From Eledone cirrhosa (taxonomy: Eukaryota), in NCBI GenBank assembly GCA_964016885.1, contig OZ024743.1, positions 46,128,001-46,192,000 of the forward strand: a DNA stretch of 64,000 bases. The letters run 5' to 3'. Below are positions 5,972 to 63,424 of this stretch, piece after piece. The notes under the pieces were generated by a model, which did not search any database, was not told where the DNA came from, and saw only the letters and a program-made list of their open reading frames with translations. The position numbers and the translations under genes are program-made. How positions within the stretch are numbered: position 1 is the stretch's first letter; each line of letters begins with the position of its first letter.

Positions 5972-6115
5972 ACAATGAGTTATATGGTTTGTTGATTATT
6001 ATTCAACAGAGTTATGTTCATAACAGATATGAAGCACTTTACAGAGGAATTTTATCTGGAGTATTATAATATTATTATTAGTAATAAATGGAAAATATCA
6101 CTATAGCATCATATT

Positions 6116-6175
6116 TATTTTATTATACGTATTTCAAGAATACTAAATTATGGTATGCCTTCATCAGATAAAATA
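6116..6175 (-). ncRNA. Minimal type-I hammerhead ribozyme (left-arm copy)
   Basis: Reverse complement of 6288-6347. Confidence 0.8.
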
Positions 6176-6287
6176 CAATATTCGATGTGTAAGATAGTGA
6201 CATACCCGTAATATAAACTTTCATCTTCAAAGCTAAAGATGAAAGTTTATATTTTGAGTATGTCACTATCTTATACATCAAATATTG

Positions 6288-6347
6288 TATTTTATCTGAT
6301 GAAGGCATACCATAATTTAGTATTCTTGAAATACGTATAATAAAATA
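6288..6347 (+). ncRNA. Minimal type-I hammerhead ribozyme, canonical core
   Basis: Stem I TATTTTAT/ATAAAATA; CTGATGA; stem II AGGCATAC/GTATTCTT; GAA then palindromic ATACGTAT; cleavage triplet AUA. Confidence 0.8.
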
Positions 6348-7721
6348 AATATGATGCTATAGTGATATTTTCCATTTATTACTAATAATAATATCATATA
6401 CATATATATAGAGAGAGAGAAATATTAAAACAATGAAATTAAACACAAAACTGTTAATTCCTAGTAAAACACATTATTTTACGATCGTTTCTGGGGGGTA
6501 GTTCCCTGTATGTTCATTCAATTATTGATCTATGTAAAACATATTACAAAATATCATAGTAAGAAAAAGATACATACGTCTTCATTGTTTTAATATTTCT
6601 ATTTTGACTCTGTATCCAATTGAATTATATCGTTGATAAAATGTTTTGTATTTTAAACTGTGCTTCACATCTTCTACATACGGATTACATTGAGTTCTTT
6701 ATATGGTTTAGACCCTACCATTGAGTGGTAGATTTATCTGTATATATATATATATATATATATATATGAGAGTATTGAAGTTTGCTTCAAGCATTGTGGA
6801 ATAATAAGGTAAATTTCTTTAAGTCGTTTGGAAGCCTCGACAATGCAGATGGGTAAATCTCCGGATAACAAGATCCGGTGGTGGAGAGAGAGATATAAGT
6901 GGGTGTACGTTGAGATGCGTGGCGTGTATAAGACTGTAACGTGTAGAGGAATGAAGCAAAGAGCGTAAAGGATAAAAATAAAAATAACAACACGAGAAAG
7001 AGTTACCTTGGGAGAGATTTAATTGTCCCTATATATTTCGGATTCACATCCATCAACTGGGGTTTTTTTCCGGGGGCGGGGGGGGGTTGTCTGTCGGAAA
7101 GGTGCGAAACGCGTCCTCCGCTGTTCGTTGTTTTGAATATCTGAGGTATTCAGCAGAGCGCGCGTGCGCGTGAAATGGGGTCGGTCAGGCAGAGGTCAGC
7201 GGCCGAAGTAGTTCTTTCAATTGTGGGAGTGAGGTGGCGCTAGCTGTCAGTCCATTCTCTGCCTGTTTGGTGAATGTTACTGTGTGTCCGTATAGCTTTG
7301 CGGATAGCGTTGGTGGTATTCTCACCCAGGTGTGGCATTTTAAGGAAGCACTTGCCTTGGGTACCTCTCTGTCTCTTGTGTCTGGTGTCTTCTACTCTGT
7401 CTGTGAGCGAGGTAGGGTACTCGTTCGTCTCCACCACCTCGAGGAATCGCTTGGTATGAGTGAAACCACTCGCGGGATCGCTGCATCTGTTTTTGATTCG
7501 CGCGATCTCGTTCGTGATGTATCCTCTTTTGGCACTGTTAGGGAGGGCGGACTTGTAGTGGACGAACAGGTCCCTGCAGGCTGCCTTTCGGTAGAAATTG
7601 CAGTGGATCCCTCCCTGTTCCGTGATGTTGATTCGGAAGTCGAGGAGGGCAAGTGACCCGTCTGCGTTTGGGTGTTCAACACTGAAGCCAATGTTCCCAT
7701 CCGTGTTGTTGAACGTCTCAA

Positions 7722-9773
7722 AGACCTAACCGGCACTCTCACGAGCGACTAGCTGAAACTCCTACACCTCGGACCCAAGTTCATCATCTCACAACGACTC
7801 GACGACAGACTCAAACTCAACATCGAGGCCAACTTTTGTCGAGCCGCTTACCAACTTAAATGGGTGACCGCCATCAACAGCGCCACAGAAAATAACAGCG
7901 CTCATGCAACCCAAGTTCCCCACTTACCACCCGACAACCCACTCCCCCCCCCCCCACCCACCAACCACGAACTCGACACTAAACTCATCAGGCTAAAACA
8001 CCTCATCTCGGATATACTTCACAAACACACACACACACGCACAACACACAACCTCACCAAATCTCAACTCACCACTCTCTCCAACCTAAAATCGAAGAAC
8101 CTCATCTACCTCCCCTCCGACAAGGGAAAAGAATTCTGCGTCATCAACAGAGAGGCCTACAACACCCTGGCCCTCCAACACCTTGACGATGACAACCTCT
8201 ACTCCAAGGTCACGGGAATCACTCCCGCGCAGATAGAAGAGCACATCAACGCCGCCTGGACCAACATCTGCGACCGACGGAAGCTCCCGAAGAAGCTGAG
8301 ATACAACCTCCTCACGAGGAACAGCAGACTACCCGCCTTCTACCACCTCGTGAAAACACACAAACAGGGACCCGACCTGAAGATCAGGCCCATTGTATCG
8401 AGCGTGGAAGGACCACTCTACAAAATTTCATGGCTCCTAGCCAGAATACTCAAACCCATCTTAGACACCTTGCCGGGACACGTTAACAGCTCCGAGGAGG
8501 TGTTGAAGTGCCTGCATCAAATGGATCCCGACACCAGAAAGAATAACAGATATGCCTTCAGCCTTGATGTAGTCGCTCTCTACACCTCGATCCCGGCACT
8601 CCTGGCCGTCAATATACTAATGGAACGCGTCCAATCCACCGACCTACACTGCTTCGGGCTCACCACCACTGATATCCACCAACTCCTATCCATCGTCGTC
8701 GACAACACCTACTTCGGATTCCTTGACCAAACATACCAACAAACCTCGGGACTGCCCATGGGATCAAGCCTGTCGGGTGTGTTAGCGATCTCTTACATGG
8801 ACAGCCTCGAGCGCAAGGCACTCAACGCCTGCCACCCCAACGCCGTCGCTTTTTTCTCAAGGTACGTGGACGATATCCTCATCCTCACATCTTCCCAAGA
8901 CATGGCGAACAGAATCTTTGAGACGTTCAACAACACGGACGAGAACATTGACTTCAGTGTTGAACACCCCAACGACGACGGGTCACTTGCCCTCCTCGAC
9001 TTCCGAATCAACATCACGGAACAGGGAGGGATCCACTGCAACTTCTACCGAAGGGCAGCCTGCAGGGACCTGTTCGTCCACTACAAGTCCGCCCTCCCTA
9101 ACAGTGCCAAAAGAGGATACATCACGAACGAGATCGCGCGAATCAAAAACAGATGCAACGATCCCGCGAGTGGTTTCACTCATACCAAGCGATTCCTCGA
9201 GGTGCTGGAGACGAACGGGTACCCTACCTCGCTCACAGACAGAGTAGAAGACACCAGACACAAGAGACAGAGAGGCACCCAAGGCAAGTGCTTCCTTAAA
9301 ATGCCACACCTGGGTGAGAATACCATCAACGTTATCCGCAAAGCTATACGGAGGGAGGGCCTCGACATCCACCTGGTCCACTCGGGCCCCTCACTGCGAA
9401 GATGCCTCTCCAGGAAACCCGGGAAATCAACAGACGCAGCTCCCTCAGAGACTGCCCGATGCGCCATGCGAACTGTTGCCTACGCACATATGTCGTGTAA
9501 AAGATAGAATGTAACAAGTGCAACCAATACTATATAGGTAGCACAATCCGGCCGTTGCACATCCGGATCAATGAACACACTAAAACCAGGGCCTCGTCTT
9601 TCCGGAAACACATAGCCAAATGCGAAAACAAAGACGGAAGGCCCATTGTCACAATTCTAGCGACAGAAAGAAACGTCGGCACGTTACGTATCAAGGAAGC
9701 ACTTTGGATCAAACGCCTAGGGCCACAATTAAACAACCGATCCGAGAGAAGCGAAATGAGGTGGTTGGTTTAA
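7722..9773 (+). pseudogene. PLE reverse transcriptase + GIY-YIG endonuclease, 5'-truncated, frameshift near 9430 and a stop in the first GIY-YIG motif
   Basis: LGPKF, PSDKG, YHLVKTHK, RPIVS, SLDVVALYT, GLPMGSSLS, RYVDD; shifted frame VV*KIECNKCNQYYIGSTIRPLHIRINEH...KEALWIKRLGPQLN. Confidence 0.92.
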
Positions 9774-10082
9774 GTTAACAAACGATACAACAACACACGC
9801 ACACACACACAAGCGAGACAGCAACACACGCACACACACACACACACAGTAACATTCACCAAACAGGCAGAGAATAGACTGACAGCTAGCGCCACCCCAC
9901 TCCCACAATTGAAAGAACTACTTCGGCCGCTGACCTCTGCCTGATCGACCCCATTTCACGCGCACGCGGGCTCTGCTGAATACCTCAGATATTCAAAACA
10001 ACGAACAGCGGAGGACGCGTTTCGCACCTTTCCGACAGACAACCTTTCCACCACCACCACCACCCCCTCCCCCGGAAAAAAC

Positions 10083-61774: not shown

Positions 61775-61788
61775 TATATATATATATA

Positions 61789-61925
61789 TGAAAAAGTATG
61801 ACCCCGACGACTTGAGCTCTGCCGTCGGGGTCATACTTTTTCCTATTACCCACTCTACTACCCTAAGTAGTGAGTACTCTGGTGCGTTATGGTCCATCTG
61901 GTTCCTTACCACAACTCCTTCGTTA
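61789..61925 (+). mobile_element. Fold-back family H, copy 4 (short hairpin)
   Basis: GAAAAAGTATGACCCCGACG / CGTCGGGGTCATACTTTTTC plus the shared tail, in (TA)n. Confidence 0.85.
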
Positions 61926-61946
61926 TATATATATATATATATATAT

Positions 61947-62644
61947 ATGTAAGTATGTATGTATACGTACATACATATATGTATACAGACGTACAGTAGC
62001 ATGTATATATATACATACAGGCACACATATATATATGCACGTATCAGTTTACCGAACATTTATTATAATGCTCGGTTTGTTCGTTTGTAAACAAACAAAC
62101 AGCCTGAATTACGCCGTACAGTGTTTAGGCAACCACGTCACCTTTTTTTTTTTTTTTTTTTTGTTCAACACTGACACAGGAACGATGTACTAGTTTCAAG
62201 CTTATTAGCTATCGTCAGCACCGTATACCTTTCTGCCAGATGGTTGAACGTCCGAAAGTATATACTTTCCTTATGAAAATTAACGGCTGAGCAGCCCAAT
62301 TTGCATATCGAGTGAGTTCAGTCGGCCAGGCGCACCGAAAACGATAAATGGAATAGAATGAAACGAAATTTCATTTCTCACTCTTAGTACGGCACTTACT
62401 TAAATGTAAGTATGTATGTATACGTACATACATATATGTATACAGACGTACAGTAGCATGTATATATATACATACAGGCACACATATATATGCACGTATG
62501 AGTTTACCGAACATTTATTATAATGCTCGGTTTGTTCGTTTGTAAACAAACAAACAGCCTGAATTACGTCGTACAATGTTTAGGCAACCACGTCACCTTT
62601 TTGTTCAACACTGACACAGGAACGATGTACTAGTTTCAAGCTTA
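61947..62644. repeat. Direct duplication of ~250 bp (61947-62204 and 62404-62644)
   Basis: Near-identical apart from poly-T length and a few substitutions. Confidence 0.9.
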
Positions 62645-62676
62645 TATATATATATATATATATATATATATATATA

Positions 62677-62785
62677 TATTCCGATGATTTGATCAGAGAG
62701 ACACACTGTATTTAAGGTCGAGTGACGCAATTTCGAGTGATTAGCGGCCTTTAGACTCACCTGATCAATGAAACAATTGTTAATA
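62677..62785 (+). ncRNA. Hammerhead-like motif with U4C core change and long stem II insert
   Basis: TATT-CCGATGA-T-TTGATCAG...CTGATCAA-T-GAA-ACAATTGT-T-AATA; starts a ~325-bp TA-flanked island ending at 63002. Confidence 0.6.
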
Positions 62786-63424
62786 CTGTAAATAAAACCC
62801 TTTTTCTACAGCCGACCATGTTGTTCTTCACTCTTTCACTACTATTACTCTAAGAATGACCTACATGGGAATTCTCGTAAACTCACTGCCTAACTAAGGA
62901 AACCTCTTGTTGAGGCAAACAACGCCGTGCGTTAAAACTATCCATAGTACAGAGTACTCACAACCTCTAACTGGATTACCCAAAACGATAACATGTTATC
63001 CCATATATATATATATATATATATATATGCGTGTGTGTGGGTGTGTATGCGTGCGTGTGTGTGTGCGTGCGCGCGTGTGTGTATGTGTTACGCAAACAAC
63101 TAACAAACCGCTCGAGTGGCGGTGTTCCTACTGGTATATAAAATTAAACTGTAGGAATGTATTATTATCAGACGATATTGTATAATATAACTATATGGAA
63201 ACTTTATTTAAACGATTGTAATTTGCATAGGCACCAATGATTCCTAAGATCGTATCATAGTTTGATATCTCTATTTAGTATTAGAGTTTGGGAAAACTCT
63301 AAATTCTTGTTCGAAAACTATAAAAAAAAATACTATAAGTGACAGACGCTGATTTTAATCACTTGCTTATCAGTAGATTCACCGCATTTAAAAACAGACT
63401 AAGGGACTAGGATGACAATAATGG

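Follow-up and report, generated by a model that had tools for sequence, protein, structure and literature searches.

Hairpin-shaped insertions attributed to Penelope-like elements in Eledone cirrhosa pair two fixed 3' ends and carry a candidate start-site stem

Insertions in the window and their parent elements

The window analysed here, a stretch of 64,000 nucleotides (nt) of the Eledone cirrhosa genome (assembly GCA_964016885.1, contig OZ024743.1, positions 46,128,001 to 46,192,000), contains several insertions in TA tracts that share a hairpin-like layout, in which an arm with an additional tail lies head to head with an inverted arm that lacks it. A preliminary description had distinguished five such families, here named A, B, C, D and H, and had traced them to Penelope-like elements (PLEs). 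All five are indeed present; in each the arms are inverted, the tail is confined to one side and TA tracts flank the whole. The span that it delimited also covers a sixth family, E (62680-63002). The families are mutually unrelated, as it had claimed, there being no cross-family similarity in a self-BLAST of the window (best cross-family match at E=0.40 among the matches listed). In each family the 3' ends fall on two fixed sites, termed inner and outer, between which lies the tail; family B has a second inner position 6-9 nt away. The features are listed below (RT denotes reverse transcriptase, and ORF an open reading frame).

5972-6064, minus strand: tail of family A, about 95 nt; its outer-site end adjoins the TA tract
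6065-6227, minus strand: tail-bearing arm of family A, with a canonical type I hammerhead at about 6175-6116
6236-6394, plus strand: tail-less arm of family A with the inner-site end; canonical hammerhead at about 6288-6347
6768-6815, minus strand: tail of family B, 47 nt, with the outer end
6816-7724, minus strand: inverted arm of family B, in which an internal jump connects the 3' region with part of the RT ORF (a copy of 8915-9352)
7753-9773, plus strand: 5'-truncated PLE ORF of family B; RT matching Pfam RVT_1 (E 1.8e-10)
9774-10331, plus strand: 3' region of family B with the inner-site end; degenerate hammerhead-like fold at about 10084-10118
10420-10652, plus strand: family H copy 1, made of an inverted tail-less arm, an A/T-rich junction, an arm with a hammerhead 3' half and a 78-nt tail
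10583-10606, plus strand: ACUC...GAGU stem of family H, a candidate initiation signal, 8 nt behind the inner site
11877-12201, minus strand: tail-less arm of family C, 326 nt of a 482-nt monomer, with a whole canonical type I hammerhead at about 12030-11947
12202-12411, plus strand: tail-bearing arm of family C and its 109-nt tail, with a hammerhead 3' half
49514-49673, minus strand: tail (62 nt) and arm of family D, a piece of a 291-nt tandem monomer
49674-49785, plus strand: tail-less arm of family D with the inner end
49811-49998, plus strand: family H copy 2
50203-50307, plus strand: family H copy 3, minimal arms and tail
61790-61923, plus strand: family H copy 4, with its fold point at the hammerhead stem III palindrome
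62680-63002, plus strand: family E, a single-armed copy (arm and 161-nt tail) of a Hydra-type PLE terminal repeat

The arms of family A (6065-6227 and 6236-6394) are 96% complementary, and the family B arm at 6816-7724 is 94-97% complementary to 8915-9352 and 9849-10331; the complementary arms are 11877-11977 and 12202-12302 in family C and lie within 49577-49784 in family D. The loop that had been described between the arms is not a spacer in B and C, where it is the surplus length of the longer arm. Family E, single-armed in the window, has head-to-head inner/outer copies elsewhere in the genome. The TA tracts at the flanks hide any target-site duplication.

Each family was searched in the 3.0-Gb genome, with arm-only queries for A, B, C and the second query of H, and with the tail included for D, E and the first query of H. 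There were 783-3185 first-look candidates per family and the layout recurred among them, and it is thus not a product of chance. The best 30 loci (20 for E) of 40 scored candidates were kept; since only best-scoring loci were taken, the samples are biased to young, query-like copies.

The hairpin-shaped insertions are almost certainly footprints of PLEs. The PLE origin was borne out by contiguity with PLE ORFs in families A, B, E and H: with overlaps and neighbours removed, it was seen in one insertion of A, one of E, eight loci of H (11 listed loci minus two overlapping ones beside a different PLE and one chimeric locus), and, for B, in the window and six further loci. The arms of these four families continue into PLE ORFs; within the 3-kb loci, no PLE ORF adjoined family C in 32 loci or family D in 64. 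The parent of family A is represented by a TA-flanked 3.1-kb unit (locus L156) that comprises a tail-bearing inverted arm, a degenerate ORF for RT and endonuclease, and a tail-less end. Longer copies of family H extend upstream through a 3' region of about 1.3 kb into the ORF (L164-L186), and family E runs into a PLE ORF in the same manner. A further, near-complete Hydra-type PLE, designated element F (L151:943-5112), combines an open frame of 713 codons with an inverted arm and terminal repeats.

The Hydra clade, as characterized in section 11 and File S7 of PMC8557442, has RWK or RWR and DKT motifs, a CxCX5C linker, CxxC and CxH around conserved E and N residues, no CCHH, insertion into TA, and hammerheads. 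In the parts that are readable, element F shares this signature with the parents of A, H and E: the linker and the CxxC/CxH arrangement without CCHH are complete in the A parent and in element F and partial in the H parent, the E parent was read by eye from the DNA, and the two N-termini that were read have RWR and DKT (element F) and RWK (E); the hammerhead core of H differs, being non-canonical. A homolog search gave 1284 matches, with no named reference protein among the 120 matches listed. Family B is indeed the one coding PLE that had been described, with RVT_1 in the window; its C-terminal GIY-YIG domain, with CCHH residues and a cysteine linker, lies in a different frame from the RT and contains one stop. 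The combination of GxKF, DKG, cysteine linker and CCHH points to the Neptune/Nematis type, the two not being separated. The five families do not constitute one class: judged by these motifs, A and H are assigned to the 3' ends of Hydra-clade PLEs and B to a Neptune/Nematis-type coding PLE. Extreme truncation and non-autonomous derivation had both been put forward as origins, and both apply, family by family, A, B, H and E being truncations of coding PLEs and C and D non-autonomous tandem repeats. Two other PLE fragments lie in the window: one related to family B (12954-13956), in which the 3' region keeps an intact CUGAUGA hammerhead core, unlike the degenerate core of B, and one 5'-truncated Hydra-like ORF fragment of about 400 open codons adjoining a TA tract (14729-15967, minus strand).

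Family C consists of head-to-tail 482-nt monomers (L068, L079); 42 of 43 units keep the type I hammerhead intact, and the GC content is 0.388. It resembles the non-LTR retrozymes (PMC7229834; bioRxiv 10.64898/2026.07.22.740005) in its tandem monomer, one type I hammerhead per unit, low GC (<45%) and lack of coding sequence, and its monomer exceeds the 170-400 nt of the former source and falls within the 51-972 nt of the latter; it is therefore classified, from its sequence, as a non-coding tandem retrozyme. The units of family D, 291 nt long, are repeated head to tail. Their sense strand includes a tRNA-like domain (Rfam 32-34 bits against a cut-off of 29; called by ARAGORN in two of three loci), which the window copy has lost by truncation; the family differs from a non-LTR retrozyme in having no type I hammerhead per unit. 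Short interspersed elements (SINEs) derived from tRNA have an end of the type found in long interspersed elements (LINEs). Family D is like them in its tRNA-like domain, its non-coding nature and its hundreds of candidates, and unlike them in its head-to-tail tandem arrangement, two fixed internal 3' ends, and a PLE footprint in place of the LINE-type end. Both C and D likely ride on PLEs. Beside family C, two observations may be recorded: a family at L123 (tail about 130 nt) and L190:155-877 has a tail resembling that of the retrozyme and is a possible sister family or partner; and a 513-nt contig of another organism (read run X3) contains a family C unit of about 97% identity, so that family C is probably shared beyond this species.

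A descriptor scan found canonical type I hammerheads in both arms of A and in the left arm of C only, and each of them points outward. Family H has, in the window, the hammerhead 3' half only; the core of its parent reads CUGAGAA in 28 of 32 copies and is non-canonical, and that of family B is degenerate, reading CAGUUGA in 19 of 21. Both variants differ from the U3-A8 variant given in passages of PMC4209133. The scan detected no hammerhead in the window copy of family E, and three core patterns detected none on either strand of the family D dimer. Rfam, searched with the window at E up to 1, returned no hammerhead family, its matches being miRNA-type hairpins below the gathering score and one weak tRNA, and minimum-energy folds of the hammerheads and the H stem were no better than those of shuffles. 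The claim that four of the five families carry a hammerhead thus stands if variants are counted, but the canonical form is confined to A and C, and the hammerhead is not what unites the families. Its outward polarity was confirmed, the core pointing outward in 12 and inward in one of 38 family representatives, a set that contained some wrong merges and duplicates and was later re-clustered to 33 families. The cDNAs of family H extend past the predicted cleavage site, in line with the uncleaved RNA template reported in PMC11167929. Truncation at that cleavage site was rejected for H, as the predicted cleavage lies 20 nt upstream of the inner site and the stops cluster at 50-63 nt. There, in loop II of the variant hammerhead, both arms stop (L001-L030), possibly because the RNA begins there or the RT is strongly halted. 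Also rejected was a stop of the m1A58 type in the tRNA-like domain of D, the stops clustering at 111-114 nt on a short palindrome and not at 118.

Paired ends and a candidate stem

TA borders both ends of 97 unique head-to-head insertions, and in 96 of these an inner end is combined with an outer one (A 6/6, B 7/7, C 13/13, D 25/26, E 6/6, H 39/39). Free choice of site would give at most 50% mixed pairs; in the families retrieved with arm-only queries (A, B and C) 26 of 26 pairs are mixed, with p=1.5e-8 against that expectation. The tail is one-sided in 96 of the 97 and measures 47-161 nt in the six families, mostly above the published 30-40. The two fixed ends and their pairing support two elements of the earlier interpretation, namely two priming sites and head-to-head joining. 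It had also placed one of the primers at the RNA end, which did not hold: beyond the outer end comes the next unit in C and D, the ORF leader in E (L230, about 50 nt ahead of the ATG), and a leader-like stretch in one locus of H, so that this end is internal to a longer RNA in C, D and E and probably in H. Single-armed copies that end at the inner site on TA are also present.

An inverted-repeat search restricted to TA-flanked segments, which had been suggested as a check, was run on all retrieved loci without regard to family. With 743 of 758 such segments tested, 174 items contained an inverted copy of one terminus, and their tails measured 30-200 nt in 139, more than 200 nt in 24, 13-29 nt in three and at most 12 nt in eight. 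The last eight comprise one outer+outer copy of family D (L133), three copies of a family with true terminal inverted repeats (TIRs), and four tail-less fold-backs of three other families. In total there are four or five such tail-less fold-backs from three or four other families (L135/L207, L183, L070, perhaps L062); those at L135:1049-1206, L207:2539-2704, L183:1905-2112 and L070:2518-2797 are symmetric and lie in TA tracts, three with a hammerhead 3' half. In view of these and of the outer+outer copy of D, the rule is not universal. Moreover, when all 117 unique head-to-head pairs are counted, 106 are mixed, as the 20 pairs that had been set aside for want of TA at one end divide into 10 mixed and 10 of the same type; in nine of these ten same-type calls, L038 being ambiguous, the printed flanks show that one 'end' merely continues into the tail or the next unit. 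The pairing rule is strong, not absolute.

The sites are accompanied by a candidate RNA stem, RCUC...GAGY. It was first noticed post hoc, and was then looked for by eye in the six Hydra consensi of PMC8557442 File S7. When the 139 tailed survey items were re-clustered into 33 families, found regardless of the motif, RCTC lay 2-18 nt behind the inner site in 18 of them (shuffle control: mean 2.9, maximum 10, in 5000 shuffles); it was present in 17 of 24 families with tails of at least 56 nt vs one of nine with shorter tails. The stem lies about 6-14 nt behind the ends, and in the 38-representative set the offsets peak at 6-10. The closing strand covaries with the opening one, ACTC being paired with GAGT in nine families and GCTC with GAGC in three, with no crossed combination (Fisher 0.0045, an optimistic value, since the families are related). 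In E, F, H and two more Hydra-type loci, the stem also occurs behind the outer site or 30-45 nt before the ATG. Family C has GCTC behind the inner site and a CUC/GAG variant behind the outer, and family D only the 5' half, ACTC, at +8.

Among the published Hydra consensi, the exact stem is found in three of six (Hydra-2_Amil, Hydra-2_Ajap and Hydra-1_Ajap; the Hydra-1_Ajap consensus has it twice ahead of the ATG, at a spacing of about 60 nt), a variant in Hydra-1_Crog and Hydra-1_Amil, and the 5' half only in Hydra-1_Obim (PMC8557442 File S7). A metagenome relative has the exact stem behind the hammerhead in one family (four of seven loci, in which the 3' end is readable, the other three being uninformative). 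The candidate start-site stem spans phyla, and it likely marks where the enzyme starts copying.

Mechanism and alternatives

The most probable account of these insertions, in our judgement, is two primings on one RNA, followed by head-to-head joining of the truncated cDNAs. The PLE enzyme would nick both strands of the TA tract, as known from another clade in vitro, and one cDNA would be primed at the inner and one at the outer site of the same RNA. The stem would place the RT on a UA-rich patch about 6-14 nt upstream, of which 2-5 nt would pair with the nicked TA end; the outer cDNA would copy through the region that is also copied from the inner site. Microhomology-mediated joining is a route of DNA repair, and the truncated cDNAs may be joined head to head in this way. 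Families C and D would be moved in trans by PLE enzymes. The junctions vary between copies, with short overlaps or short, often templated, inserts, from which it follows that the palindrome is made afresh at each insertion.

The overlap of the arms had been taken to imply two templates, which might be two RNAs in a dimeric complex, separate units along a tandem transcript, or consecutive passes around a circle. Overlap of the arms was indeed seen in 88 of 96 pairs, single arms span up to about 2 units in the tandem family C and up to about 4 in the tandem family D, and PAc, the enzyme of a Poseidon PLE, is predicted to be a dimer (PMC11167929). Two-site priming on two templates would, however, need an extra rule against inner+inner and outer+outer pairs, given 96 of 97 mixed. 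It is also at odds with the private variants common to partner arms: non-majority bases are shared, per 100 sites, at 2.84 between partner arms vs 0.19 between arms of different insertions in A, 0.51 vs 0.18 in B, 0.69 vs 0.11 in D and 1.35 vs 0.20 in H (permutation p 0.0005-0.01). This sharing is weakest in C, as two templates would have it. Against two templates, in turn, the 5' ends of the two arms in H are correlated (rho 0.53), though in part through a common stop hot spot. Overall, strict inner/outer pairing and shared variants fit one RNA at least as well, and a two-template origin is considered unlikely.

A single priming followed by fold-back self-priming, of the cDNA or of antisense RNA, would with endonuclease resolution at the inner site give a similar product, the stem then being a nuclease signal; the layout was read as self-priming in PMC3846280, and the tail was ascribed to endonuclease-mediated resolution in PMC8557442. 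This reading predicts the shared variants as well, and junctions often lie on short palindromes (the H stem III loop, CATG in D). By an arithmetic estimate of outer arm lengths, with about 10 inner lengths corrected by hand, the arms of 46 of the 96 pairs are within 25 nt of each other, and fold-back matches these near-symmetric pairs equally well; it may be the source of some symmetric copies. Of the rest, the inner-ended arm exceeds its partner in 31 and falls short of it in 19; a lead of the inner arm as a consistent feature was rejected, as this difference is not significant overall (p=0.12). Since either arm can be the longer, neither is always a copy of its partner, and with an excess of more than 100 nt in the tail-less, inner-ended arm of 25 pairs and the reverse in nine, there is no fixed template arm. 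This geometry argues against the published self-priming reading, as do the eight of 96 pairs without arm overlap, the solo inner-ended copies that abut TA, and the extension of both strands in vitro (PMC11167929). As a general explanation, fold-back is thus rather improbable.

It would be most surprising if these were miniature inverted-repeat transposable elements (MITEs) with TIRs at TA: the fold-back shape and TA flanks do recall them, and a truly symmetric TIR family occurs in the same loci (L080, L226, L154), but lengths of 130-3561 nt, junctions that differ per copy, asymmetric ends without fixed symmetric TIRs, and arms continuing into PLE ORFs in A, B, E and H refute this, in agreement with the preliminary description. 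A rearranged copy of that TIR family lies at 61948-62645 and provides a MITE-like contrast. Assembly artefacts from chimeric fold-back reads are equally hard to credit; palindromes beside long TA tracts are error-prone, and the read check covered family C, but the arms of a pair diverge by 2-5% and their ends fall on two fixed sites; moreover, in raw Illumina data from two other samples the inner site of C is followed at once by TA in 96 and 90 reads and by the tandem continuation in 89 and 105, and 3-6 reads each support head-to-head joints at other positions. Read joints from 12187/12202 to 12400, scored as 'opposite strand', were rejected as fold-backs, being tandem continuity of C.

Several points weigh against two primings on one RNA guided by the stem, in addition to the exceptions to pairing and the symmetric pairs given above. 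The sharing of variants is not significant in C (p=0.09) or E (p=0.07); where present, it could have arisen by gene conversion of one arm by the other, or because one locus supplied two RNAs, and alignment run-over near palindrome centres could add to it. The closing strand of the stem is absent in six of the 18 RCTC-positive families, D among them, and B and the short-tailed families have no RCTC motif. Both ends overlap the TA flank by 2-5 nt (e.g., 17 of 19 inner ends in C and 41 of 49 outer ends in H), as raw counts uncorrected for chance; the TA-like motif that had been noted at the tail-less arm is thus present there, but not exclusive to it. For C and D, no PLE emerged as a partner.

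Two primings on one RNA remain, nonetheless, the reading that we prefer, and a wider proposal can be attached to it tentatively, at slightly less than even odds. Hydra-clade PLEs would have the conserved RNA stem twice per terminal repeat, with one copy behind either RT start, and a dimeric enzyme would prime both ends of the break on one RNA, thus producing the inverted copy plus tail; RNAs of C and D that have the signal would be inserted likewise, C as a circular-RNA retrozyme and D as a PLE-driven, SINE-like class.

Precedents, neighbouring repeats and implications

The layout itself is already published. The unit of endonuclease-bearing PLEs has a pseudo-long terminal repeat (pLTR), an adjacent inverted 5'-truncated copy, an optional 30-40 bp tail at one end, and a bias to microsatellites (PMC3846280; PMC8557442), and the families described here match it in layout, polarity and TA target. 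The 47-nt tail of B and six other tails of 36-45 nt are near the published length, while tails are 60-190 nt in most families here; the pairing, which is counted here (96/97), corresponds to a tail and inverted copy that passages of those papers term 'often' or 'optional'. Paired opposite-strand minimal hammerheads 100-700 bp apart are recorded in PMC4209133. Two RT starts and extension of both strands are likewise known from PAc in vitro (PMC11167929), where two internal starts bound a 30-40 nt tail, both strands are nicked and extended, and the target is AT-rich. The two internal starts are alike in both systems; the PAc start is not homologous to the cut DNA, whereas the junctions here overlap it by 2-5 nt, a difference that also tells against the pairing step proposed above. 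PAc belongs to a different clade, and head-to-head joining and the pairing of starts were outside the scope of that study.

In L1 twin priming, two primers at one target give a head-to-head inversion, whose arms lack overlap and whose second start can vary. The insertions described here differ in both respects, with fixed starts and arms that overlap in most pairs.

The link between retrozymes and PLEs has been drawn from co-occurrence and pLTR homology (PMC7229834; bioRxiv 10.64898/2026.07.22.740005), and the main-text passages of those papers contain no insertion footprint of the kind seen in 13 of 13 head-to-head copies of C. The stem is not mentioned in the relevant passages of PMC8557442, in which the word 'hairpin' occurs 0 times, though it is visible in the consensi of that study. 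In the openly accessible literature, nothing was found on the pairing rule or the stem, nor on insertion footprints of retrozymes or PLE passengers derived from tRNA. What is new, then, is the near-strict pairing rule, the stem at the start sites and two non-coding passengers with the PLE footprint.

Other repeats lie elsewhere in the window. Several two-ORF LINEs (apurinic/apyrimidinic endonuclease and RT), which we take to be L1/Tx1-like, lie in both orientations at 18232-40630 and 42036-57853. Among them, beside a TAT tract, is a 1216-codon open RT ORF with a C-terminus like that of a restriction-like endonuclease (23907-27557, minus strand), presumably Dong/R4-like. Dispersed SINE-like repeats occur at 48276-48462, 52722-52908 and 63484-63623 (one family, which in other loci often directly abuts the ends of family A) and at 3479-3603 and 17039-17164. 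An imperfect 107-nt palindrome without TA-tract flanks is found at 53657-53763.

The origin of the inverted-copy-plus-tail structure of PLEs is called unresolved in passages of PMC8557442 and PMC11167929, and the pairing and arm geometry presented here separate the published models. For annotation, it is to be noted that the 33 families, recovered from well under 1 Mb of retrieved DNA, could pass for MITEs. The covarying stem would be a specific cis-element, one that can be mutated in the existing in vitro assay. The footprint of family C offers insertion-level support for the mobilisation of animal retrozymes by PLEs, and, if the same is true of family D, tRNA-derived repeats would join the passengers of PLEs.

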